Shown: piece after piece, positions 1 to 12,678 of the stretch
Position numbering within the stretch: the first letter of the stretch is position 1
Layout: every line of letters starts with the position of its first letter
Position numbers and translations under genes: made by a program
The notes under the pieces: generated by a model
The model's input: the letters and a program-made list of their open reading frames with translations, nothing else
Told to the model about the DNA's origin: nothing
Database searches by the model: none
Assembly: GCA_016840035.1 (NCBI GenBank)
Contig: JAEOTC010000042.1
Coordinates: 1-21,998, forward strand
DNA from: Candidatus Hodarchaeota archaeon
GTDB lineage: Archaea > Asgardarchaeota > Heimdallarchaeia > Hodarchaeales > Hodarchaeaceae
DNA length: 21,998 nt
Direction: 5' to 3'

Positions 1-1116
1 CAGTTGGTCAAATTTGAAGATAAAATCGAAATGTATACCACTTCTGAAGTTACAGGGGTATCTGGTTATATTGGGAACTTCGTGGTACAGATAACAAATA
101 ATTCTTCTGGTCAAGTAGTGGATAAATCTGTAGGTATAATTATTGTTGCTACTGGATTTGAGTCTTATAAACCTAAAGATGGTGAATATGAGTATACTAC
201 AACTGAAAATATAATAACATTACCAGAATTTATGAATCACCTTAATAAAGCTGATAATAAGGAAAAACTTCTTTATAAAGGCCAAGAAATAAATAAAATC
301 GGATTCATTTATTGCGTTGGTTCCAGACAGAAAGATATGGGCGATGGCAAACCTGTTAATGAGTATTGCTCGCGATATTGCTGTAATGCTACAGTTTTTT
401 TAACCACACAACTACAAAAAAGCTTTCCAAAACTTTATACCTATCATTTTTATCAAGATATCCGAGCTTATGGTAAAAATGAAGCTTATTACCTAACAGC
501 ACGAGAAAATGGTGCTATTTTTCTGAAATATGATCCTTATACTCCAGTTGAAGTAAATTCCTCTAATGGGAGTATTAATGTCACAATTACTGATATTCTC
601 ACTGAAAGTGAGAAAATAACTGTCCCTGTAGATCTGTTGGTTCTTGTTACTGGAATGGAAGCAAGAGAAAATAAGAAAATGGAAGAATTAGTTAAAATCA
701 CTCCTGGACTTGATGGATTTTACAAAGAATCTCATCCTAAGTTAAAACCAGTGGAAACAGGAAGAATGGGGGTTCTTTTGGCGGGAACCGCTCAATCTCC
801 AAGAGATATATCAGAAACTACAGCTTCCGCCTCTGCAGCTGCAGCTAAAGCAGCAAGCTTTGTCTTGAGAGGTGAATTGATGTTAGAACCTGCAGTGGCA
901 ACTGTCGATCCCAATCTTTGTTCTAATCATCAGAAATGTATCCCTGAATGCCCTACCAATGCTATTGAGACTCAGAATGATAAATCTGTAGTTAATGAAG
1001 CGCTATGTATAGGTTGTGCAATTTGCACAGCAGTCTGCCCTACAGAAGCTATTCAGATAAAGACTCTAACAACATCACAGATTCGTGAAATGATCAAAGC
1101 AATGGCAAAAAGTTAA
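1..1116 (+). CDS. hdrA: HdrA/QmoB-like FAD/Fe-S flavoprotein, C-terminal part (5' truncated by the window edge)
   Basis: Motifs GYIGNF, VGIIIVATG, CVGSR, YCSRYCC, DIRAYGK, DLLVLVTG, HPKLKPVET and AGTAQSPRDI. C-terminal ferredoxin pair CSNHQKCIPECP / CIGCAICTAVCP. The frame is open to base 1. Confidence 0.9.
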   Translation, partial: QLVKFEDKIEMYTTSEVTGVSGYIGNFVVQITNNSSGQVVDKSVGIIIVATGFESYKPKDGEYEYTTTENIITLPEFMNHLNKADNKEKLLYKGQEINKIGFIYCVGSRQKDMGDGKPVNEYCSRYCCNATVFLTTQLQKSFPKLYTYHFYQDIRAYGKNEAYYLTARENGAIFLKYDPYTPVEVNSSNGSINVTITDILTESEKITVPVDLLVLVTGMEARENKKMEELVKITPGLDGFYKESHPKLKPVETGRMGVLLAGTAQSPRDISETTASASAAAAKAASFVLRGELMLEPAVATVDPNLCSNHQKCIPECPTNAIETQNDKSVVNEALCIGCAICTAVCPTEAIQIKTLTTSQIREMIKAMAKS

Positions 1117-1133
1117 CTGAAGGTGTAACTAAA

Positions 1134-1442
1134 ATGAGTCAAGAGAGTAATGAAACATCTGGAAAGAAAAAGAAAACACTTACAGCTAAACTATATAAAA
1201 AACAAACTGGAGCAGTAGTTAGTGAAAAACTAAAGGAAAGAAATAAACATAATAACAAGGTTAAAAGAGCGATATTTAAAGCCATGGAAGGCGAACCTAG
1301 GACTGTTCCTGAAATCTCATTAGAAACTGGAATTCCTTCTCATGAAGTTTTGTGGCATGTAGCAACTAGTTTAAGATATCGTTTAGTTGAAGCAGTAGAA
1401 AAAACGGATGAGGATTTTTGGAGATATAGGCTGATTAAGTAG
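1134..1442 (+). CDS. Small basic winged-helix-like protein inside the Hdr-like operon
   Basis: RBS AGGTG upstream. IFKAMEGEPRTVPEISLETGIPSHEVLWHV...RLVE fits an HTH-wing pattern. Lys-rich N-terminus. Confidence 0.7.
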   Translation: MSQESNETSGKKKKTLTAKLYKKQTGAVVSEKLKERNKHNNKVKRAIFKAMEGEPRTVPEISLETGIPSHEVLWHVATSLRYRLVEAVEKTDEDFWRYRLIK

Positions 1443-1453
1443 GTGAATATGGA

Positions 1454-2596
1454 ATGGTTGCAGTTAATCAGGGTGTTGTTGTTAATACCGAAGTTTTTGA
1501 AGATATTAAAAAAATGGGTGCTTTTGACGTTTCTGCATGTATGAACTGTGGTACGTGCACAGTTTCATGTCCATTATCAATCTCTGGTAATGAATTTCCA
1601 AGAAAATTGATCAGATATGCTGTTCTAGGATTAGATGAAAAATTAGTTTCACATCCTGAACCTTGGCTTTGCTATTACTGTGGAGATTGTTCAGATCAAT
1701 GTCCAAGTGAAGCTGAACCTGGAGAATTCATGATGGCTACACGTCGGTATCTTACATCAAGATATGATTGGACAGGGTTGTCAAAGAAATTTTATTTGTC
1801 AGAAAAATGGGAAATTGGTGCACTTCTTACCCTTGCCTTAGTTTTTCTTGGAATATTCGTTGTATCGAATCTTGTAGGTATAAGTAGTATGCAGGGGGAT
1901 AATGTTTCGATAGATAGCTTTGCTCCAATTGAGTGGATTCATATAGGTGATCTCATTTTAGGAGGAACCTTAGCGCTTCTTTTACTCTCAAATGCACTGA
2001 GAATGTATTATTATATAATCCTTAATGATAAAAGTGTTAAAGTACCAATTAAACTATATTTTACAGAGATTAAAGCATATATTCTTGCAGGCCTCAGTCT
2101 CGTAACTCAATATCGATGGCTTTCATGTGACAGTAAAACTAGATGGTTAAAACATCTTTTTCTTGTAACGGGTTATGTAACAATTTTCACCTTAGTTGTA
2201 GTCTTTATTGATATCTTTCAGGTGGATGACACAGGTTGGAATATAAGTTCGCTTCTAGGTTATTATGCGACAGCTGCACTGCTATTTGTTACGCTAGAGG
2301 CTATGTGGAGTCGATATAAGAAAAATGAACAAATGCATAAGCATTCACATTTATCTGATTGGTTGTTTTTGATACTGCTTTTCCTCACGGCAACTACTGG
2401 GATTTTTCTGCATTTATCTCGACTCATGAATTTCACTTATCCAAGTTACATAATCTATGTAATCCACATAATGATTGCAGGACCTATGTTAATAATAGAA
2501 GTACCTTTTGGTAAATGGTCACATATGCTTTATCGACCTCTTGCTGTATACTTAGCAATGGTAAAAGAAAAGGCCAAGTCAATAACAACTGAGTAG
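1454..2596 (+). CDS. QmoC-like protein: HdrC-type 2x[4Fe-4S] domain fused to an HdrE/NarI-like membrane (cytochrome b) domain
   Basis: CMNCGTCTVSCP and PWLCYYCGDCSDQCP, then about six hydrophobic helices with membrane His residues (WIH, LKH, FLH, VIH, PFGKWSH). RBS AGGTGA. Confidence 0.85.
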   Translation: MVAVNQGVVVNTEVFEDIKKMGAFDVSACMNCGTCTVSCPLSISGNEFPRKLIRYAVLGLDEKLVSHPEPWLCYYCGDCSDQCPSEAEPGEFMMATRRYLTSRYDWTGLSKKFYLSEKWEIGALLTLALVFLGIFVVSNLVGISSMQGDNVSIDSFAPIEWIHIGDLILGGTLALLLLSNALRMYYYIILNDKSVKVPIKLYFTEIKAYILAGLSLVTQYRWLSCDSKTRWLKHLFLVTGYVTIFTLVVVFIDIFQVDDTGWNISSLLGYYATAALLFVTLEAMWSRYKKNEQMHKHSHLSDWLFLILLFLTATTGIFLHLSRLMNFTYPSYIIYVIHIMIAGPMLIIEVPFGKWSHMLYRPLAVYLAMVKEKAKSITTE

Positions 2597-3257: not shown

Positions 3258-3998
3258 CTAATGGAACTGTAGTAGAATAATAATTATTCCAGCACCTAAT
3301 ACCATCATGATTACTTCACGAAGTTCGTCCATTAGACCTACTCTAGAATGCAATTCAGGATAAATGTCAGTTAGAGCAATGTAGAGGAAACTTGATGCTG
3401 AAATAGCCATTACATATGGAATTACTGACTGTATAGTGTCCAGGGCAAAGAATGCTATTATAGCTGTTGGGATAGTACTTATGCTTGATAAGAGGTTTAA
3501 TATCAAAGCTTTTCTTCTCGAATAACCAGAATGCAGAAGCAGTGCAAAATCACCAATTTCCTGTGGAATTTCGTGAGCAATTACCGAAAGAGTTGCAGCT
3601 ATACCAATAGGAATTGAAATTAAGAAGCTTGTCGCAATAACAAGACCATCCACAGCATTATGGAAAGCATCTCCTATGATGATCATTGAACCTACAGTTC
3701 TATGAGCTGTACAATCCATATCATGACAATGCCGCCAGATTATCGTTTTCTCCAGAATAAAAAATAGGAAAATACCTACTAAAACAGTCGTTAGAGCTGT
3801 TTGTACATCTAAATGTTCAAGCGCATGAGGTATCAACCCTAATAAAGCTGCGGTCAGAAGTGTCCCACTCGCGAACGAAATTAAGGAGGGTATGAGAAAT
3901 TTCTGAATTGGTTCTCGAATTAGAAGAAAACCAGTTGCAGTAAGTACAGCGCCAATACTCCCTAGGGAACTAAAAACAATAATCCAAATCAATAGCAT
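3258..3998 (-). CDS. ZIP-family divalent metal transporter
   Basis: SFASGTLL, GDAFHNAVDG, HEIPQEIGDF and FLYIALTDIYPELH motifs. Cys/His loop HCHDMDCTAH. Multiple TM segments. Confidence 0.93.
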   Translation of the reverse strand: MLLIWIIVFSSLGSIGAVLTATGFLLIREPIQKFLIPSLISFASGTLLTAALLGLIPHALEHLDVQTALTTVLVGIFLFFILEKTIIWRHCHDMDCTAHRTVGSMIIIGDAFHNAVDGLVIATSFLISIPIGIAATLSVIAHEIPQEIGDFALLLHSGYSRRKALILNLLSSISTIPTAIIAFFALDTIQSVIPYVMAISASSFLYIALTDIYPELHSRVGLMDELREVIMMVLGAGIIIILLQFH

Positions 3999-4046
3999 CT
4001 TTTTAATCTCCAGATTTTTAGTTCTAGCAATATAAAACCATATCTC

Positions 4047-5279
4047 CTATGAAAAGGAGATGTTCTTCATTATTTCTCCAATGGTATTCCCTTGATATGG
4101 TTGAATTTGTATATTGTGATCCGATAAGAGTGCTTTAGGTCCAACACCAAAAGTCTCTGGGTCTTTGATCACTAAAATATCAATTTCCTCATTAATTAAC
4201 AATTCTGCACTTAATAGACCACGCTTCCGTTCAGCCAACCTATGTGGATTCTCGATCGTATATTGAGAAGTAATCCTTTTACTCAAGGTATCAAAACAGA
4301 CAATTAAGAACCCATGAGTTTGGCCGAAATGATCTTCAGGAATACCATTCATCCCTATTTCTAGAGATGGAATAGGAATCGCAACCTTCATCTGAATTTT
4401 TATTGAAGGTTCCACACTTATCATGACACTATCTAATTGAGGAATATCTTTTTTCAAAGAAGATTCTAAATTATGTGTTACCTGTGAAATAGCACTAATA
4501 GTTTTCTTTGCATCTACTCGAATCTGAATATCTACAAAATAATATGGACCCGAACGTCGGAGTCGAATATTTGAAATATCTTTTATATCTGTAAAATTCG
4601 AAATAATTAATTTTATGGTTTCAATTACTTCAGGATCATCGACGGCATCTAATAATGTCAAGATAGAACTTTTACCAAATTCAATTCCTGTTTTTACAAT
4701 TAAAAGGCTTATCAGTAAGCCCACAAGTCCTTCTAATTGAGGGAAAAGAATTATGTGCGAGAAAACTCCTATAAAAACTAATGAATTTGTGAGCATGTCG
4801 AGTTTAAATTCATTAGCTGTACTTATCAACGCATTTGACCTAATTTTTGAACCCACTCTTAAGTTATATCGATAAAGCCAATATGCACCTCCAATCGAGA
4901 CTAATGAAATTATCAGTCCCAAAGCTGGGTGATTTAATGAGCTTGGGGAAAAAAAACTTTGTGCACTTATGATCATTACATCTAGACCAAAGAAAAGGAT
5001 GAAAATCGCCACGACTAACGTAGCTAACGTCTCCATTCGGTAGTAACCGTAAGGAAATCGTTTGGAAGGATCTTTTTGAGAATAGCGTAAGCCAAAAAGG
5101 ACAGCTAAAGAACCAAATGCATCAGTGATTGCATCTAATGCTGAAGCAAATACTGCAACACTTCCGATAAATAACCCTATTATTAATTTAAGTATAATTA
5201 AGAAAATATTAGAGAAGAGAGTAACGAATGTGGCTTTCTCTCCTTCGGCTAACAGTTTAATTCTAGTATCAGAATCCAT
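4047..5279 (-). CDS. Cation diffusion facilitator (FieF/YiiP-like) with a C-terminal NifB/NifX-like domain
   Basis: FPYGYYRMETL, TM2 DxxxD, dimerisation domain RLRRSGPYYFVDIQI, then a NifX-like tail KVAIP...DHFGQ...IENPH...IDILV...G. Confidence 0.9.
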   Translation of the reverse strand: MDSDTRIKLLAEGEKATFVTLFSNIFLIILKLIIGLFIGSVAVFASALDAITDAFGSLAVLFGLRYSQKDPSKRFPYGYYRMETLATLVVAIFILFFGLDVMIISAQSFFSPSSLNHPALGLIISLVSIGGAYWLYRYNLRVGSKIRSNALISTANEFKLDMLTNSLVFIGVFSHIILFPQLEGLVGLLISLLIVKTGIEFGKSSILTLLDAVDDPEVIETIKLIISNFTDIKDISNIRLRRSGPYYFVDIQIRVDAKKTISAISQVTHNLESSLKKDIPQLDSVMISVEPSIKIQMKVAIPIPSLEIGMNGIPEDHFGQTHGFLIVCFDTLSKRITSQYTIENPHRLAERKRGLLSAELLINEEIDILVIKDPETFGVGPKALLSDHNIQIQPYQGNTIGEIMKNISFS

Positions 5280-5297
5280 TTGTGCCAGTTTCTCCTT

Positions 5298-6176
5298 CTA
5301 TTGTAATAACTCAGAAATATTTTTCCAGAGTTGATTTAAAGAACCTTCTAATTCTTGAATACCATACTCTAGAATAGTTTCTCCGTTAACCATTGCTTTA
5401 TAGATCGCTAAATTGTATGAAAGCTCTCCAACAATAGGAATACTTTCATTTTTGCAGAAATCGACTATACTTACTCGTTGTTCTTCATTGATTGTCGCTT
5501 TGTTGATAATTACTGCTGGTTGAATTTTAAAAAATTGTGTGAGCTCGATTACCCTTTTCATATCATGGATTGCAGTCATTGTTGGTTCAACCACAATAAT
5601 GACCAAATCTGCATTAGTTAAGGCTGCAATAACTGGACAACCTATTCCTGGACTCCCATCGACAATAATAACCTTTTTTTCCTCATGTTGTGCAAGTTCT
5701 TGACTTTTCTGAATAACTTCACTGACTAATTTACCAGAATTCTCTGCACCAACATCCAGTAATGCATGAACCATTGGACCAAATCTAGTTTTAGCTTCAT
5801 AGATAGTACCTGATGGTTGGATTTCCATTGTTATTGCGCTTTCAGGGCAAATCCATGCACATGCACCACACCCCTCACAATGCATGGAATCTATTTCGAA
5901 ATCCGTATTAATAGCATCAAAACGACACACTTTCAAACATTTTCCACACTTAGTACACAGTTCAGAATCCTTAATGGCTATTTTTCCACTTAAAAACCTC
6001 TCAGATGAAGAATCTGTTGGATCCATTAACAAATGTAGATTTGGTGCATCCACATCACAATCTGCCATAAGGGAAATCGGTGAAGATAATTGTGCTAGTA
6101 CTGCACTTATGGTTGTCTTTCCTGTTCCTCCTTTACCAGAGAGAACTGTGATTTGTTTTATTTTCTCCCTTGTCAT
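5298..6176 (-). CDS. MinD-superfamily P-loop ATPase with inserted 2x[4Fe-4S] ferredoxin domain (COG1149-like), paralogue 2
   Basis: SGKGGTGKTT, DCDVDAPNLHL, CTKCGKCLKVC, CEGCGACAWICP, NSGKLV, DGSPGIGCPV, EPT. Start moved from 6203 to the ATG at 6176, which forms an ATGA overlap with the upstream stop and follows a GGAGG RBS. Confidence 0.92.
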   Translation of the reverse strand: MTREKIKQITVLSGKGGTGKTTISAVLAQLSSPISLMADCDVDAPNLHLLMDPTDSSSERFLSGKIAIKDSELCTKCGKCLKVCRFDAINTDFEIDSMHCEGCGACAWICPESAITMEIQPSGTIYEAKTRFGPMVHALLDVGAENSGKLVSEVIQKSQELAQHEEKKVIIVDGSPGIGCPVIAALTNADLVIIVVEPTMTAIHDMKRVIELTQFFKIQPAVIINKATINEEQRVSIVDFCKNESIPIVGELSYNLAIYKAMVNGETILEYGIQELEGSLNQLWKNISELLQ

Positions 6177-7066
6177 TTGTTCCCCTCCTTGATATTTGTC
6201 CATAATCGTTTAAACAATTCATTAAATCTTTGCGTTGTACCAATAAGAGGCAAACCCCGTGAATATAAATGGAGAATTTCGGTATCATGGGGAATTTCCA
6301 GAAGAAGAGGATAATCGTTCTCTTTAACTAAACGTATTATTCGGTCATCCCCTACATCAGATCTATTACTTATGATCCCAAAGGGCAATTCAAGCTGTTT
6401 GACAAGTTCAATTGCGATACGGAGATCATGTTCTCCTGCTGGTGTTGGTTCGGTAACTAGGATGACAAAGTCTAAATCGGATAGACCCTCAACTACTGGA
6501 CAGGCTGATCCAGGAGGTAAATCCAAGATAACTTGCTCATCTTTCTTTCGATCAAATGCAATTTTCTTTAGTTCATGAATTATCGGAGTCGCTATTGCTT
6601 CTCCGACATTCAAAGTACCTTCATAGAAAGTTAAATTTTTTTCATAGATTGAAGATTCACTTGACAAAGAATTATCTGATCTGGTTACTTCTCCGAGCTT
6701 GTGAAAATTCTCTGTTATTGCATTCTCAGGACAAGCTAATGAGCATAAGCCACATCCATGGCATAATTCATCAAAGATCATTACTTGATTAGGAAGAACA
6801 GCGAGTGCGTTAAATTCACACAATTCTGCACAAAGGCCACAGTGTGTACAGGAATCTTCGTCCACTTCAGGTCTTAATAATCCTACATCTTGAAAATGTG
6901 CCATGGATCTATGTAAAAAGTGATTATCATTAGGTTCCTCAACATCCAAGTCAATAAGAGTGACTGGTTGTTGTTCAGCGAGGTGAAGAGATAAATTAAC
7001 TGCTACAGTAGTTTTACCAGTTCCTCCCTTACCGGATGCTACACCAATTATCGTTTCGTATTCCAC
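6173..7066 (-). CDS. MinD-superfamily P-loop ATPase with inserted 2x[4Fe-4S] ferredoxin domain (COG1149-like), paralogue 1
   Basis: ASGKGGTGKTT, DLDVEEPN, CTHCGLCAELC, CHGCGLCSLACP, DLPPGSACPV, VTEPTPAGEHDL, NRSD. GTG start directly after the upstream TAG. Confidence 0.92.
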   Translation of the reverse strand: MEYETIIGVASGKGGTGKTTVAVNLSLHLAEQQPVTLIDLDVEEPNDNHFLHRSMAHFQDVGLLRPEVDEDSCTHCGLCAELCEFNALAVLPNQVMIFDELCHGCGLCSLACPENAITENFHKLGEVTRSDNSLSSESSIYEKNLTFYEGTLNVGEAIATPIIHELKKIAFDRKKDEQVILDLPPGSACPVVEGLSDLDFVILVTEPTPAGEHDLRIAIELVKQLELPFGIISNRSDVGDDRIIRLVKENDYPLLLEIPHDTEILHLYSRGLPLIGTTQRFNELFKRLWTNIKEGNK

Positions 7067-7465
7067 CTAGTGCTTATGATCATGGTGATGTTCATGATCT
7101 TCATTTCGGTACTTATGCTGTTGACAGGCATCAGCATTAGTTGCCATCTTCAATTTATTATTTTTGAATTGCTGAATGGCATCTTTTACTATTCCTTGTG
7201 CTCCAATATAGATTTCTACTCCATATTGTTCAAATAGTTGAATAGCTCTTCTACCAATTCCACCACATATCATTATATCAACATCATAATCTCGAAGGAG
7301 TTCGGCAGGAAGTTTGGTTCCTCCACGATGAGAAGAGGTGTTTTCAATTACTTCTACCTCCTTAGTTTTGTCATCATATATTGTATAATTTATTACACGG
7401 CCAAAATGGTAACCTACTTGATCTTCTAATCCACCTGTTGTTTCTGAAGGGATGCAAATTCTCAT
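7067..7465 (-). CDS. NifB/NifX-family (dinitrogenase FeMo-co binding / ORP-like) protein with a His-rich tail
   Basis: MRICIP...HFGR...YTIYD...IEN...DIMICGGIGRRA. C-terminus CQQHKYRNEDHEHHHDHKH. Confidence 0.88.
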   Translation of the reverse strand: MRICIPSETTGGLEDQVGYHFGRVINYTIYDDKTKEVEVIENTSSHRGGTKLPAELLRDYDVDIMICGGIGRRAIQLFEQYGVEIYIGAQGIVKDAIQQFKNNKLKMATNADACQQHKYRNEDHEHHHDHKH

Positions 7466-7491
7466 TTTCTGACTCTCCTTATTTTGCTCTA

Positions 7492-7923
7492 TCAGTAATT
7501 ACCTCTTCCTCGACCTTGACCACGGCCCATTCCTCTTCCTTGACCGCGACCCATACCTCGGCCTCTACCAGGGCCCATTCCATGAGCACCAGCCATTTCA
7601 GTTAACTTTCCTGCCAATAATGCATCAATATTATCTTGAATTGATCCTGTAATACCAGAATAAACTTTTATATTCGCACCCTTCAAGACATTCCAAGCAT
7701 TTGGACCCATTTGAGGAGCAATGACAGCGTCTACTTCATTGTTGAGCATTGATTGAGCTGCTTGAATTCCAGCTCCTCCAGCTGCATTTTGAGCAGTATT
7801 TGGGTAAGCAGTGTCAATTTTCTTTGAGTTGGAATCATAAATTATGAAATATGAACACCTTCCAAAGTTTGACGCAAAAACATCTTTTATAGTACTTCCA
7901 TTTGAAGACAAACCGATTTTCAT
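7492..7923 (-). CDS. NifB/NifX-family (ORP-like) protein with a Gly/Arg-rich tail
   Basis: NFGRCSYFIIYD, GGAGIQAAQ, AVIAPQMGPNAWNVL. Tail GMGPGRGRGMGRGQGRGMGRGQGRGRG. Confidence 0.9.
   Translation of the reverse strand: MKIGLSSNGSTIKDVFASNFGRCSYFIIYDSNSKKIDTAYPNTAQNAAGGAGIQAAQSMLNNEVDAVIAPQMGPNAWNVLKGANIKVYSGITGSIQDNIDALLAGKLTEMAGAHGMGPGRGRGMGRGQGRGMGRGQGRGRGNY
7501..7580 (-). repeat. Protein-level G-x repeat, including (GRGMGRGQ)x2
   Basis: Seen directly in the translation. Synonymous codons differ between copies. Confidence 0.85.
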
Positions 7924-7928
7924 TAACT

Positions 7929-8378
7929 TTACCTCTTTTTAGATTTTAAATTTTTAATACATTGAATTTGGGTACTATCAAATCCTTGTGTATGAATGTG
8001 AAGATTTTCAGATCCACATTCTTTACAGTTTGAACCCTTATCAGTATTCTCTGTTAAACTCCAAGAATATCCACAATCGTCACAATGTAATACTTCTGTA
8101 GTATCTTCGATTCGGATAGCTAATCCATTTACTAACGCATTAGCAATCTTATACTGAACGTCATCTAAATGTCTAGAAATCGTGGACTGTGATACTTCCA
8201 TCAGTTTTCCTGCTTCACCCTGTGATAATCCTTCTAATGAGGTTAAACGAAGTGTCTCAAGTTCCTCGAGGGTAATAGTGACTTCCTCTGTAATTTCACT
8301 TAGTGGAATGCCGCGTGGTTTGAAGTAAGTATGTGTTGGATCACAACGAATCGTTCTAGGATGTCTACTTCTGGGCAT
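7929..8378 (-). CDS. DUF134 (UPF0251) HTH protein with a C-terminal Zn-ribbon
   Basis: MPR...YFKPRGIP...EELETLRL...GLSQGEAGKLMEVSQST...KIANALVNG, plus CDDC...CKECGS. RBS AAGGAG. Confidence 0.9.
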   Translation of the reverse strand: MPRSRHPRTIRCDPTHTYFKPRGIPLSEITEEVTITLEELETLRLTSLEGLSQGEAGKLMEVSQSTISRHLDDVQYKIANALVNGLAIRIEDTTEVLHCDDCGYSWSLTENTDKGSNCKECGSENLHIHTQGFDSTQIQCIKNLKSKKR

Positions 8379-8511
8379 TTTAAAAAACTCCTTATTTTAC
8401 GTAAAACTACTGTTCATGTGACGTTTTGACGAATTACATTCGTTCTACAGGTTTCGATCCTTAGGGTTGGTTTTTACAACGAGTTTTATGATAATACAAT
8501 CCAAATTGCTA

Positions 8512-8554
8512 TTTTGCATATATATTCATAAAGGTTTCGCATATATATGCAAAA
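8512..8554. promoter_or_regulatory. Twin 20-bp palindromic operators overlapping a minus-strand BRE/TATA
   Basis: TTTTGCATATATATTCATAA (8512-8531) and TTTCGCATATATATGCAAAA (8535-8554). On the minus strand 8540-8525 reads GCGAAACCTTTATGAA. Confidence 0.75.
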
Positions 8555-8601
8555 CACTTATCAATATCTATATAAATTTGTTATTTGCTTAAGGAGGCAA
8601 A

Positions 8602-8721
8602 TTATTCACGAATTATGTCTATGGGCTAGTACCCTCAAGAAGATTGGGGCAATCCTTAGATGTATCACCTATTCCATCTAAAACATGCAATGTTCTTTAC
8701 CAAATTATCAGAGACTCTTAG
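8602..8721 (+). pseudogene. Remnant of a COG0731/Tyw1-like radical SAM gene
   Basis: After the RBS AGGAGG (8592-8597) the frame reads [39 protein letters not shown]. This matches the family N-terminus YVFGPVPSRRLGxSLGxxPIPxKTCNxxC as I recall it, broken inside CxxxCxxC. Confidence 0.8.
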
Positions 8722-8838
8722 ATGTTGAATTAAAAAGTAAAATTGGTAAAACTTTCTGTTAATAGAAGGAAATCACTAAATCTAAACACTTGTTTCGTCT
8801 CTCAGAAAAAGAATTAGGAAAAAAGGGGCAATATTCAA

Positions 8839-9216
8839 ATGGTTGAAAAAATAAATGGTTTTTGTCCTTTTCGTGTTCAGACTCCTGACCATCAAGCAGG
8901 ATGCACACTCCTTTTTGGTCTAAATGCTAGGTGCTATACCCAAGAAAAGCGTCCATTAATTAGGAGAAATAATGATTTTATCTGTCCTATTATGAGTATT
9001 CATCTTAGTTTAAATGTCTACGATCAGCTAGAACACTTCCTTGAGCCTATCTTGCGAATTCAAGATGAATTTGAAATTGCGATTAACATTTGGCCGACAC
9101 TTAAGGGACTAGCTAGCTCCTTCTATAATGCAGAATCACATCATGGAGTTAATCTGGTAGAATTAGCAAAGATTATCCAAGACGCATTAGATGAAATCGT
9201 ACTTGAACAGAATTAA
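8839..9216 (+). CDS. Hypothetical protein with four Cys in the N-terminal half
   Basis: 125-aa ORF with a purine-rich RBS (AAGGGG). No family recognised. Confidence 0.6.
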   Translation: MVEKINGFCPFRVQTPDHQAGCTLLFGLNARCYTQEKRPLIRRNNDFICPIMSIHLSLNVYDQLEHFLEPILRIQDEFEIAINIWPTLKGLASSFYNAESHHGVNLVELAKIIQDALDEIVLEQN

Positions 9217-9254
9217 CAAGATAATCAATCGTTTAACATTTTTAGTATATGATG

Positions 9255-10137
9255 ATGGAAAATTCTTAAAAAAGTAATTATACAAATTTTAGTTGACAAT
9301 ATAGCAGGTCCACCAGGAACCCTTGGCGAAGGTGGTTTTTCTGCCATTATAGAAGCATTTTTCTCAGACTCATCCAATTTAAAAGTCTTGTTTGATACTG
9401 GTCCTTCATCGAAAGCATTGGTCAATAATTCTAAGAAATTAAAAACCGATTTTCAGACAATAGATGCTATTGTACTTAGTCATGGGCATTTTGATCATGT
9501 AGGGGGATTAAATGAGGTGATAGATTTAATAGGTAAAAGGGTACCGTTAATTTGCCATCCTCGTGCGCTTATGCCTAAGTTTCTCAAGAGTGAAGATCAA
9601 ATCATCGATGTTGGCATTCAAGGATTTATTGACTCTGATTCTTTGAGAAAAAGGGTTGATTTAATAGCGGTTAGAACTCCTCATGAGCTCAATAATTCAA
9701 TCCTGACTACTGGTGAGATCCCTCGTTTAAATAACTATGAAAAGTTAACAAGAAGATTGAAAGATGTAACGACAATAGATAACAATAAAAGGATACCAGA
9801 TACTCTACAAGACGACCTTTCTTCAATTTTTCATCTCGCAGATGATTCTGTGGTGATCCTATGTGGATGTTGTCACGCAGGGATTGTTAATACAATATCT
9901 TTGGCCACAGAGTTAACAAATTCTAAGAAAATAGTTGGAATCATTGGCGGTCTTCATTTATTCTCAGCATCAGAAGACCGTTTAAGAAATACTGTTGAAG
10001 AATTAAAGAGATATCCTATTGAAACTATGGCACCTTGCCACTGTTCAGGATTTCGGGGTTAGGTAGCTCTCTCCAAAGCCTTTGGTAAGAATTTTCGTGA
10101 AATAAATATCGCATCTAAGACAGAATTCACGATCTAA
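9255..10137 (+). pseudogene. MBL-fold metallo-hydrolase (COG1237-like) with a 5' frameshift and a premature TAG
   Basis: ILVDN...LGEGGFSAIIE...VLFDTG, LSHGHFDHVGGL, CGCCHAG, GGLHL, PCHCSG. The ATG at 9255 is out of frame by one A in AAAA (9259-9262). TAG at 10060-10062 is followed by a family-like C-terminus VALSKAFGKNFREINIASKTEFTI*. Confidence 0.8.
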
Positions 10138-10709: not shown

Positions 10710-11362
10710 TAGACAGACCCATCGAGGATTTTACCAGCAATATACATCGAGTATAATCCCCCTGATAAAAAGCTATATGCAAAAACAATCGCTGTTGCTA
10801 TATTAGCCAAGGTTCTTAGATCTAAAAATAACATCAATAATAAGGGCCCAGATGATATTAGAAGTATTATTCCAGAGATAAATAGTTCCTTATATTTTCC
10901 ATGAACTTGCTGTAGGAATACATAAGAGGATATTAGTGCGATACTACTTACGATTATATATGAGACTATATTGAATGGTTCTATGACATAGTTCGGAATT
11001 TGAAATAGGATAAACCACATCAGGCCCATGACTACTCCGTGATAATGACTCAAGATGGAGGTTTCTTCCTCCTCCTTTTTGGTACCTAGTTTTACTTTTG
11101 GAACTGATAAAAATATATAAAGAGTAAAACCAGTACCAAGTAAAATTGTTAAAGTTGTAGTAATGAACTTCAGGAATGGCTCCTCTATATCTAGTGTGGA
11201 AGATATTTGAGCATTGAATGTGAACATTATTATTGCTAATGGTAATAGAATTCCCCAAATAGTTAAAACTTTTCCCCATGCTTTACGGTAAAGATAATCT
11301 GTATATCTGTCAACAATCAGGAAAGTTTCACTAATTTTATCTACAGCTTCCATAGTAATCAC
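10709..11362 (-). CDS. Polytopic membrane protein (~6 TM) translationally coupled to the wHTH regulator
   Basis: Repeated hydrophobic segments. 1-nt overlap with the regulator gene. Confidence 0.75.
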   Translation of the reverse strand: MITMEAVDKISETFLIVDRYTDYLYRKAWGKVLTIWGILLPLAIIMFTFNAQISSTLDIEEPFLKFITTTLTILLGTGFTLYIFLSVPKVKLGTKKEEEETSILSHYHGVVMGLMWFILFQIPNYVIEPFNIVSYIIVSSIALISSYVFLQQVHGKYKELFISGIILLISSGPLLLMLFLDLRTLANIATAIVFAYSFLSGGLYSMYIAGKILDGSV

Positions 11363-11625
11363 GAGAAGTCAATTAATCATCAGCTATATAACATAAAGTG
11401 CTTTTCTGTGTTACAAAATTAGCACTTGTGCACAGTTAACAGAGATTTTTGTTTCTATTAAAGAACCTTTAATTTTAAAAATATATCACAGAACGTTAAT
11501 TCTTCCCAAGTTCTATTTTAGGTTTTTTCTATCGTTCATATACAATATAAAGTATGTAAATTAGTAATTTATATCATATTTCTGATTTTTTTCCTTTTTT
11601 AGGTCAAATATTTGAATTTATCAAA

Positions 11626-11660
11626 TTCTGTATTCCAGAGTTTGTTTCTGCATTCCAGAA
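11626..11660. promoter_or_regulatory. Tandem TTCTG-N5-CAGAR palindromic sites upstream of the ABC exporter
   Basis: TTCTGTATTCCAGAG (11626-11640) and TTCTGCATTCCAGAA (11646-11660), starts 20 bp apart. Confidence 0.55.
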
Positions 11661-11727
11661 AATAATTCTATCTTAAAAACATCAGTGATAACATTATTTT
11701 AGATGAAAATTAAAGGTGAAATTGATA

Positions 11728-12678
11728 ATGAATGCAATAGTTGTTAAGAATTTAGTAAAAAATTATGGAACACAAAATATATTGAAAACAGTAAATTTAA
11801 CAATCGAAAAGGGTGAATTTTTTAGTTTGATGGGACCAAATGGGTCAGGAAAATCAACTCTAGTATCTATCATTACTGGAACAACACCTATAACTAAAGG
11901 AGTTGTTAATGTTTATGGTCATAATCTTTTTGAGGAATCTAAAAATGTAAAATCCTTAATTGGGTATGTTCCTCAAGAAAATTTCTCCAGTCCTCGTTTG
12001 ACTGGTAGAGAAAACCTTCTATACTTTGCTCAACTTTCTGGGCAAGATAAAATAACAGCTAAAAAGTGGGTGGATGATATATTGGAAAAAATGGGACTCA
12101 CAGAAGATGCAGATAAACTTGTTTCAAAATATAGCGGGGGTATGCGCAAACGACTTGAAGTAGCTACAGCACTTGTGCCTGGAGTAAAAATACTCATTCT
12201 AGACGAACCAACGACAGGTTTCGATCCTGCTGCTAGGAAGATGTTACTGGGTTCATTACTAGAGATTAACCGCGAGGGAATAACCATTTTTCTTGTTACA
12301 CACATAGGTGAAGACGCAGGTGTTGCTAAAAAGGTAGCTTTCATGAAGAATGGTAAAATAATTTTGCAAGATGACCCTAAAAACTTAAAAATAAGATTTA
12401 AAGAACGAACTACAGTAGACGTAAAACTGGCAATAAAAGATACCCATATTTATAACAAATTATTGAGTTTTAACAAAGGTAGAAAGGTAATTGAGACAGT
12501 AGATGGATATAAGGTCTACTGTGACCGTCCTGAAGAAATTCTTCCCCAAATAAATAATTACTTGAATGATATTGGTTCTCCATCAGCCAAGGTTGAACTG
12601 AATCCAGCTTCACTTGAAGATATTTTCTTCTTTCTTACTCAACAAGAATCTAGATATGATCTGGAGGAAGAAAAATGA
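11728..12678 (+). CDS. ABC-2-type (DrrA-like) exporter ATP-binding subunit
   Basis: Walker A GPNGSGKST, signature YSGGM, Walker B ILILDEP, H-loop VTH, C-terminal SLEDIF. ATG 11728 chosen because of the GGTGA RBS at 11715-11719. Confidence 0.92.
   Translation: MNAIVVKNLVKNYGTQNILKTVNLTIEKGEFFSLMGPNGSGKSTLVSIITGTTPITKGVVNVYGHNLFEESKNVKSLIGYVPQENFSSPRLTGRENLLYFAQLSGQDKITAKKWVDDILEKMGLTEDADKLVSKYSGGMRKRLEVATALVPGVKILILDEPTTGFDPAARKMLLGSLLEINREGITIFLVTHIGEDAGVAKKVAFMKNGKIILQDDPKNLKIRFKERTTVDVKLAIKDTHIYNKLLSFNKGRKVIETVDGYKVYCDRPEEILPQINNYLNDIGSPSAKVELNPASLEDIFFFLTQQESRYDLEEEK

Follow-up and report, generated by a model that had tools for sequence, protein, structure and literature searches.

Background

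The closest described counterpart of the gene cluster analysed here is the orange protein (ORP) set of Desulfovibrio. The cluster lies at positions 3258 to 10137 of a contig of Candidatus Hodarchaeota archaeon (JAEOTC010000042.1) and encodes a DUF134 protein, NifX-fold proteins, a pair of MinD-like iron-sulfur (Fe-S) ATPases, an exporter of the CDF family and an importer of the ZIP family. The entire 22-kb contig, called the window in the following, belongs to a metagenome-assembled genome of 4.3 Mb, which is 87% complete. In Desulfovibrio vulgaris Hildenborough the ORP set comprises Orp3, Orp4, Orp5, Orp8, Orp9/MrpORP and the regulator OrpR; it is found in anaerobes only, and its function is regarded as unresolved (PMC6345978, PMC8359166). 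Orp3, Orp4 and Orp8 co-purify and receive clusters from MrpORP, and C-terminal amphipathic helices, related to MinD membrane binding, have been noted in Orp3 and Orp4 (PMC6345978).

A second term of comparison is IssA (PF2025) of Pyrococcus furiosus, in which an IPR003731 domain is combined with a disordered, cationic Gly-rich tail of 70 residues (isoelectric point 10.7, rich in Gly and aromatics). IssA stores thioferrate and can rebuild [4Fe-4S] ferredoxin, and an uncharacterised 'IssX' clade with Gly-rich tails has been described alongside it (PMC5524996). Methanococcus voltae has two IssA homologs, four locus tags apart, which rise on pyrite (PMC8516115). Nitrogenase assembly (NifB, NifX, NafY, NifH) and the CDF exporters YiiP/FieF and MamB/MamM were also considered. 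No functional study was found in the literature for DUF134, UPF0251, COG1149, COG1342 or DUF5320, and no paper describing a fusion between a CDF exporter and a NifX domain (CDF::NifX); a published ANME-2a gene list shows the same neighbours, with no comment on the cluster (PMC12622379).

By gene content and architecture, the core of the locus, i.e. DUF134, NifX and the ATPase pair, corresponds to the Desulfovibrio ORP set in the form that is widespread among archaea. The locus as a whole may be, with a probability of about 0.5, a self-regulated iron-sulfur and metal buffering and trafficking module, docked to transporters, in a sulfide-exposed anaerobe.

Results and discussion

Organization of the locus

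Seven genes lie on the minus strand between 8378 and 3258, in the order DUF134, NifX, NifX, ATPase, ATPase, CDF::NifX and ZIP, separated by gaps of 5, 26, 0, -4, 18 and 48 nt. The -4 gap is an ATGA overlap between the two ATPase genes, preceded by GGAGGGG. The following features were identified, with domains called by Pfam and NCBIfam profile searches.

7929..8378, minus strand: DUF134 helix-turn-helix (HTH) protein with C-terminal CxxC...CxxC Zn ribbon (PF02001, 63.8 bits; cut-off 27)
7492..7923, minus strand: NifX-fold protein with a 33-residue Gly/Arg tail (PF02579, 73.9 bits)
7067..7465, minus strand: NifX-fold protein carrying a conserved C-x2-H motif, tail rich in His (PF02579, 69.4 bits)
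6173..7066, minus strand: MinD/ParA-class P-loop ATPase with inserted 2x[4Fe-4S] ferredoxin domain, paralog 1 (ParA/CbiA and Fer4 matches)
5298..6176, minus strand: MinD-ferredoxin ATPase, paralog 2 (CbiA/ParA and 2x Fer4 matches; start ATG at 6176)
4047..5279, minus strand: CDF exporter fused to a C-terminal NifX domain (TIGR01297, 206.8 bits)
3258..3998, minus strand: ZIP-family divalent metal importer, final gene of the operon (PF02535, 121.5 bits)
8512..8554, no strand: twin palindromic sites of the TGMATAwwTATKCA type in the divergent promoter, starts 23 bp apart
8611..8712 (approximate), plus strand: remnant of a radical SAM gene of COG0731 type, reduced to the N-terminal ~30 codons (radical-SAM start motif, then stop)
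8839..9216, plus strand: 125-residue Cys-containing protein, family unassigned (no Pfam/NCBIfam match)
9262..10137, plus strand: COG1237-type MBL-fold gene (PF00753, 39.6 bits)

A previous reading of the same DNA, made from sequence only, had described a tightly coupled seven-gene operon and a divergent arm made up of a radical SAM relic, a Cys-rich orphan and an MBL-fold gene. All these genes were found, those of the operon with the domains then stated. The three NifX-like domains of that reading were likewise recovered, two as PF02579 proteins and the third, in the CDF tail, by profile score and predicted fold. A PF02579 search of the whole genome detected four NifX domains, three of which sit in the operon. 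The gene for the fourth is on contig C40 (748-2193), beside a 92-residue Cys/His protein and an ArsR-like HTH gene. The stretch itself is present in three DNA runs, all from one marine-sediment study.

Comparison with the ORP set

The locus shares with ORP the association of a NifX-fold protein with two paralogous MinD-like ATPases, each carrying two [4Fe-4S] motifs and a C-terminal amphipathic helix, as well as a divergent promoter with palindromic sites and, in relatives, a Mrp-type Fe-S carrier as partner. By this architecture the two ATPases are Orp3/Orp4-like. The differences concern both regulation and gene content. The likely regulator is DUF134 rather than the sigma54 activator OrpR, and no enhancer-binding protein gene is present in the window, so the sigma54/OrpR feature of ORP is missing there. 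A plain Mrp, encoded on another contig, is found instead of the MrpORP fusion: the best genome match to the MrpORP model (NF041136), on contig C225, reaches 281.8 bits against a cut-off of 450 and covers model positions 1-249, and none is found in the window. No Orp5-type gene was recognised in the window, while the Gly-Arg-tailed NifX, the His-tailed NifX, CDF::NifX and ZIP are extra parts.

The sequence-only reading had taken the locus for an archaeal ORP variant in which DUF134 replaces OrpR. The first part agrees with the NifX/ATPase architecture, but the window contains neither MrpORP nor Orp5 nor sigma54 control. The notion of a special offshoot has to be abandoned, as the DUF134-led form is the widespread one; an archaeal origin of ORP is, moreover, already suggested in a passage of PMC8359166, which cites Scholten 2007.

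The ATPase pair

A sample of 151 Asgard genomes yielded the ATPase pair in 105, corresponding to 41 of 52 genera, nearly always as two matches per genome, adjacent wherever both places were listed. In an alignment of 173 family members, drawn from the surveyed module loci described below, the eight ferredoxin Cys and the Walker-B Asp are conserved at 90% or more in both paralogs. A further Cys, located 7 residues after the Walker-B Asp (C189 in the first ATPase), is 98% conserved in both. In switch II of NifH, Asp125 and Cys132 are the same distance apart, which is taken as a lead only. The conserved switch-II Cys is a candidate metal or cluster ligand at the dimer interface.

In related NTPases, a metal is bound between the two subunits of the dimer at this place in switch II, and the invariant single Cys would also suit a role of the locus in divalent-metal (Zn, Mn, Ni, Co) homeostasis. 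In such a case NifX and the His tail would bind ions, the ATPases would be metallochaperone NTPases similar to CooC, HypB and UreG, and CDF and ZIP would balance the ion. The eight Cys of each ATPase, predicted to hold two [4Fe-4S] clusters, point instead to electron transfer, and this role is considered unlikely; further evidence bearing on it is reported in the following sections.

The C-terminal amphipathic helices have a hydrophobic moment (muH) of 0.75 in paralog 1 and 0.63 in paralog 2, values falling in the top 0.5% of the 14-residue windows of each protein. A membrane-peripheral ATPase pair would fit work at transporters. The same helices, together with membership of the MinD/ParA family, are also in line with a MinD-like role in positioning or cell division, first proposed for the Desulfovibrio ORP complex, with the transporters as unrelated passengers. 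Morphological defects on loss of orp expression are cited in PMC8359166, where, however, the role is called unclear by the ORP authors themselves. Metal-sulfur chemistry is indicated instead by the ferredoxin inserts and by both the Mrp and the IssA-like partner, and the transporters are bound to the module through the CDF::NifX fusion and a linkage that is conserved across phyla; a role in cell division is hence regarded as highly improbable.

NifX-fold proteins and a possible IssA connection

The tail of the NifX-fold protein encoded at 7492-7923 consists of 33 residues, including 15 Gly, 7 Arg, one aromatic and no Cys, with an isoelectric point of 12. As in IssA, the N-terminal domain is of the IPR003731/PF02579 type; the cationic, glycine-rich and presumably disordered tail that follows resembles that of IssA in part, but is 33 rather than 70 residues long, contains more Arg and Gly and is related to DUF5320. 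IssA has been studied as a lone protein, whereas NifX sits here in an operon with ATPases and transporters. The tail resembles the N-terminal part of DUF5320, and the closest homologs outside Hodarchaeales are proteins of 190-200 residues in which PF02579 is fused to PF17253 (DUF5320), whose tails combine GMGRG repeats with a Pro-rich linker and a coiled coil.

Because of the resemblance to IssA, which the sequence-only reading had not noticed, and since the nearest outside relatives are NifX-DUF5320 fusions, the likely chemistry shifts from Mo-Cu-S to iron-sulfur. The Gly-Arg tail points to iron-sulfur binding of the IssA type, and the cargo would probably be an anionic iron-sulfur species. 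The Mo-Cu-S 'orange' chemistry, which the sequence-only reading had cited for Desulfovibrio, finds no support at this locus, where the tail suggests otherwise and FeoB recurs nearby.

The second NifX-fold protein (7067-7465) matches PH0822 (4.5e-15) and the orange protein 2wfb (E 4.2e-7) in a PDB sequence search. Its tail contains 7 His in 22 residues and is kept in congeners. The His-rich tail and the C-x2-H motif are what could be expected if divalent ions were bound. On the other hand, the characterised NifX-fold proteins all bind metal-sulfur clusters rather than single ions (PMC5524996; PMC6345978), and the Gly-Arg tail of the first protein suits an anionic polymer, not a cation.

The CDF::NifX fusion

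The exporter scores 206.8 bits with TIGR01297 (cut-off 82.35), 143 bits with PF01545 and 53 bits with PF16916. Its best-scoring NCBIfam equivalogs are the iron transporters MamB and MamM, both of the magnetosome, and FieF, all below cut-off. The C-terminal NifX domain covers residues 296 to 410 approximately (nt 4050-4394) and is weak by sequence, with 25.2 bits in one Pfam search and 28.5 bits, above cut-off, in another. By fold, however, it is clear, as judged on an AlphaFold (AF2) model with a pLDDT of 85.9. In the predicted fold, residues 296-410 match the Desulfovibrio gigas orange protein 2wfb over 105 residues, with Z 15.6 and a root-mean-square deviation of 1.7 A; further matches, with Z of 12-15, are PH0822, MJ0327, TM1290, MTH1175 (12.5) and NafY (12.4). 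Residues 1-295 match YiiP/ZnT transporters, YiiP being the top Foldseek match, and the predicted cytosolic domain matches MamM, MamB and CzrB with Z 13-14. The six-helix membrane domain and the metallochaperone-like cytosolic domain are shared with YiiP/FieF and MamB/MamM, from which the protein differs by the additional C-terminal NifX domain.

In Hodarchaeales, transport site A is formed by D49/D53 in TM2 and E157/D161 in TM5 (window 4797-5135), a variant of the H/D-xxx-D pattern, whereas fusion proteins of methanogens and DPANN lineages have an H-D/H-D site. The latter is usual for zinc transporters, and its presence in most CDF::NifX proteins favours divalent-metal homeostasis to some extent. 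The D-D/E-D versus H-D/H-D difference likely reflects a clade-wide change of metal preference.

Conservation of the module

The sequence-only reading had proposed a gene-neighbourhood survey, which was performed from both the transporter and the module side. On the transporter side, an alignment of fusion proteins led to 80 loci in species-representative genomes, which were searched with the window proteins; a sample selected in this way shows the companions of the fusion, not the share of modules carrying it. The 80 loci belong to Hodarchaeales, Methanobacteriaceae, Methanomicrobiales, Methanosarcinales, Bathyarchaeia, Thorarchaeota and Thermoplasmata, to Woese-, Aenigmat-, Nano- and Iainarchaeota, and to two bins labelled Saccharibacteria. 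Seventy of the loci lie outside Hodarchaeales; there, the match extends into the NifX domain in 67 cases, and at least one module gene is found within 10 kb at 60 loci. Linkage was evaluated at the 29 loci having at least 6 kb on both sides, counting partners within 10 kb:

any module gene: 26/29
DUF134: 20/29
ATPase pair: 18/29
MBL: 18/29
Mrp: 13/29

The usual order in methanogens is DUF134-NifX-Mrp-NifX-ATPase-ATPase-CDF::NifX-MBL. The regular presence of the Fe-S carrier Mrp among the cluster members is a further point against divalent-metal homeostasis.

On the module side, 40 representative Asgard loci, about one per genus, were analysed with flanks of up to about 9-10 kb. The Asgard core consists of DUF134 (26 of the 40 loci, several of which are on cut contigs), one or two NifX genes, the ATPase pair and often Mrp. 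A CDF gene is found in the flanks of 6 loci, FeoB at 5 and ZIP at 3.

In congeners, the NifX-NifX-ATPase-ATPase-CDF::NifX arrangement is syntenic in about ten genomes, with a CDF identity of 51-65%. In two of them (G008 and G012) the CDF gene is followed by genes for a Mrp/NBP35 ATPase, DUF364 and DUF5320, and in G008 also for a CGGC protein; in the window's genome Mrp, DUF364 and DUF5320 are on other contigs. The 'heavy-metal chelation' label of the DUF364 genes is compatible with divalent-metal homeostasis. Congener G014 (L141, C8:3000-21493) has core proteins 77-90% identical to those of the window, with ZIP directly after the second ATPase, followed by a radical SAM gene; its MBL gene is divergent from DUF134, and FeoB lies alongside. 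This natural 'deletion' variant is useful for comparison, since it has no CDF::NifX.

Because 34 of the 40 Asgard loci have no CDF gene nearby and G014 lacks the fusion, the core must work without CDF::NifX. These are also the facts which would be expected if CDF and ZIP were ordinary housekeeping transporters brought next to the module by chance. The domain fusion itself and the module genes at 60 of 70 distant fusion loci speak against chance, an explanation which is largely refuted for CDF::NifX and has very little probability overall. The fusion, by itself a functional link, is old and widespread, extending over Hodarchaeales, Methanobacteriaceae, Methanomicrobiales, Bathyarchaeia, Thorarchaeota and DPANN lineages. 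CDF::NifX is a real, dedicated accessory of the module. It can be taken as a 'Rosetta stone', indicating that NifX carriers work at a metal transporter. The claim that ZIP and CDF are parts of the system is thus retained in a reduced form: they are not chance neighbours, being nonetheless recurrent accessories rather than core members. The combination of DUF134, NifX and ATPase pair recurs, while CDF and ZIP occur at a minority of Asgard loci.

A full module, with CDF::NifX placed between the two ATPase genes, is found on a complete 1.84-Mb Woesearchaeota chromosome (G174, L071), where the SUFBD core gene was not found and IscS/IscU are present. The possibility that the module is the sole Fe-S assembly system in small DPANN genomes was considered and rejected, as NifU_N/IscU is present in all four DPANN genomes checked.

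ZIP and FeoB

The ZIP protein scores 121.5 bits with PF02535 (cut-off 35.1) and its translation contains the HNxxD and HExPxE motifs. The gene begins 48 nt past the CDF stop. Within this gap are a hairpin and a TATA-like TTTATATT, and transcription of ZIP from a promoter of its own is possible, a circumstance which would also suit a chance neighbourhood. A scan for sigma-70 promoters and hairpin terminators, a method unsuited to archaea, gave counts at shuffle level.

ZIP follows the module in congeners G004, G020, G021 and G014. It is found within 10 kb of the fusion gene at 7 of the 70 non-Hodarchaeal loci, and between module genes in several DPANN-type loci (L079, L081, L093), the order in L093 being CDF::NifX-ZIP-ATPase-ATPase. 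FeoB is located within about 10 kb in the window and at eight other loci (L028, L033, L035, L103, L120, L122, L125, L141). From the 3 ZIP genes present in 4.3 Mb, a rough chance expectation of about 1-2% per 20 kb was derived; the observed ZIP and FeoB frequencies are several-fold higher, which again argues against chance, as does the position of ZIP between module genes in DPANN lineages. ZIP is a rarer yet recurrent accessory.

DUF134 and the divergent promoter

The DUF134 protein combines a weak Sigma70_r4 match, i.e. a sigma-70 region-4-like HTH (Pfam), with a HypA-like Zn ribbon (30.1 bits), the latter being a feature that divalent-metal homeostasis would accommodate. The modules of congeners are also led by DUF134, which is likely the local regulator of the operon. 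Two or three copies of the palindrome are kept upstream of DUF134 in six congeneric loci, whose flanking sequences have diverged, and a pattern search revealed that the twin arrangement occurs once in the 4.3-Mb assembly. The twin palindromes may be the operator bound by DUF134; being A/T-rich, they may alternatively be a promoter element. A regulon of DUF134 beyond its own promoter was searched for across the assembly and not found, the single twin site being the only one. The analysis supplies in this way a concrete candidate operator for the DUF134 family.

Two other observations concern the same genome. One exact copy of the palindrome half-pattern is found at C40:5839, 4.7 kb from the fourth NifX-fold gene. 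On contig C281 (19023-21077), a second, small island contains a paralog of DUF134 with its Zn ribbon (51% identical), a methyltransferase-like gene, a divergent DUF5320 and a short DUF134-like protein whose N-terminal segment is rich in Arg/Gly.

The divergent arm and a possible role in cofactor assembly

What is left of the radical SAM gene is the GLVPSRRLG...KTC start, with a stop following the first Cys of CxxxCxxC; no full-length barrel is present. In G004, the closest relative having this arrangement, the same position holds the gene start and an ORF for the radical-SAM C-terminus, and next in the arm come a 243-residue gene, a gene with a CGGC domain and the ortholog of the 125-residue Cys protein. 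Because these additional genes are present in G004, the window has lost about 2.4 kb of the divergent arm. Both the relic and the odd MBL start described below are reproduced in a separately assembled contig of another run of the same study (X1), which covers 7730-9667 and differs by a single substitution, without indels.

COG0731 radical SAM genes recur with the module at 9 of the 70 fusion loci and at several Asgard loci. This recurrence, the match of the NifX fold to NafY and to the orange protein, and the NifH-like spacing of the ATPase Cys would suggest an assembly line for a special metal or heterometal cofactor, analogous to the nitrogenase pathway with a NifB-like radical SAM, NifX carriers and a NifH-like ATPase, and corresponding to the 'orange' Mo-Cu-S type of the sequence-only reading; the transporters would supply the heterometal. 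As in nitrogenase assembly, a NifX fold would carry anionic metal-sulfur clusters alongside an Fe-S ATPase of the SIMIBI class and, in relatives, a NifB-related radical SAM partner. The locus differs in that the ATPases have ferredoxin inserts rather than a single bridging cluster, the radical SAM gene is dead, and a PF00148 profile search of the 87%-complete assembly detected neither a nitrogenase nor a NifEN-type gene.

Several of these differences weigh against a cofactor assembly line. No second copy of the radical SAM gene was found in the assembly, although the operon is otherwise intact; no PF00148 match was obtained in the genome, as noted, and no conserved candidate for a client enzyme lies nearby. 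The window contains no molybdate/tungstate transporter, and CDF and ZIP move divalent cations, not oxyanions. Cofactor assembly is accordingly viewed as improbable, to the same degree as divalent-metal homeostasis.

The 125-residue Cys protein has no Pfam or NCBIfam match and no usable Protein Atlas match. Its ortholog, 77% identical, ends the divergent arm of G004, and two tandem paralogs (41% and 34% identical) are found on contig C51. The C51 paralogs, for which 22489-23319 and 11342-12040 are cited, are about 10 kb from a ZIP paralog.

MBL genes are located near CDF::NifX in many methanogen loci and at 30 of the 70 fusion loci overall. In the window, the MBL frame contains a TAG at 10060-10062, which is TAG in the assembly and in run X2, and AAG (Lys) in a contig from run X1. 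The ortholog of G014, which is 71% identical and adjoins DUF134, has Lys at this position. Judging from the AAG variant and the G014 Lys, part of the population has an uninterrupted gene, and its interpretation as a pseudogene was rejected; the TAG is either a nonsense polymorphism of the sediment population or a consensus error. Neither this gene nor the G014 ortholog has an in-frame ATG, GTG or TTG. In both species the frame starts with TGA-TGG-x-ATT, just downstream of an out-of-frame ATG (window 9249-9280; L141 about 7100-7130, minus strand), pointing to translation from a non-canonical (ATT) codon or to a programmed shift in the lineage.

On the other side of the operon, a block of HdrA-like, small winged HTH and QmoC-like genes (window 1-2596) keeps its synteny with the module in two congeners, G004 and G020 (L017 10777-13360; L018 1-2301), with 86-97% identity.

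Proposed function

In the proposed buffering and trafficking module, Fe2+ would enter through ZIP and the nearby FeoB, and surplus iron and sulfide would be bound, in the manner of IssA, as anionic Fe-S species on the Gly-Arg-tailed NifX. The membrane-peripheral ATPase heterodimer, by means of ATP and its Fe-S clusters, would load or unload (oxidise or reduce) the bound material and would shuttle it among the NifX carriers, as NifH does with the precursors of the nitrogenase cofactor. The NifX domain of the CDF tail would be a docking or sensing point for venting excess metal. Finished clusters would be delivered to client proteins by Mrp/NBP35, whose gene is elsewhere in this genome but within the cluster in congeners, while DUF134 would control the expression of the full gene set. 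Iron is favoured as the metal because of the links to IssA and Mrp, the recurrence of FeoB nearby and the rank of MamB, MamM and FieF as best-scoring equivalogs of the CDF protein.

A number of findings weigh against this reading. The Gly/Arg tail has half the length of that of IssA, a single aromatic residue and no Cys. The zinc-type site of most CDF::NifX proteins, set beside the D-D/E-D site of the Hodarchaeal clade, does not fix the metal, and ZIP proteins are broad in specificity. The absence of CDF from the flanks of 34 of the 40 Asgard module loci, and of CDF::NifX from G014, has already been described. Nor is the module a general Fe-S machinery, because its carriers also have SufB or IscS/IscU: in five module genomes checked, SufB was not found in three and is present in Methanobacterium, while cysteine desulfurase homologs are present in all five. 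The model gives no explanation for the radical SAM and MBL partners. Finally, the run search for the stretch listed DNA runs and no RNA run.

A more specific and distinctly speculative extension of the buffering module is a membrane-docked Fe-S 'mineral bank', an anoxic counterpart of ferritin, in which Gly-Arg-tailed NifX proteins of the IssA/DUF5320 type would hold an anionic Fe-S polymer, the ferredoxin-bearing ATPases would deposit or withdraw it at the expense of ATP and electrons, and the NifX domain of the CDF tail would pass metal directly from store to transporter or back.

Conclusions

Few uncharacterised gene clusters of anaerobes are as widespread as the ORP proteins and the COG1149/COG1433/DUF134 set, whose role has been unclear since 2011. 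The CDF::NifX fusion and the IssA-like tail turn the vague label of 'metallocluster' into specific experiments on iron and sulfide buffering, which are feasible in tractable methanogens with the same gene order. If the 'mineral bank' were confirmed, storage and transport would be one machine, conserved from DPANN lineages and methanogens to the Asgard relatives of eukaryotes.

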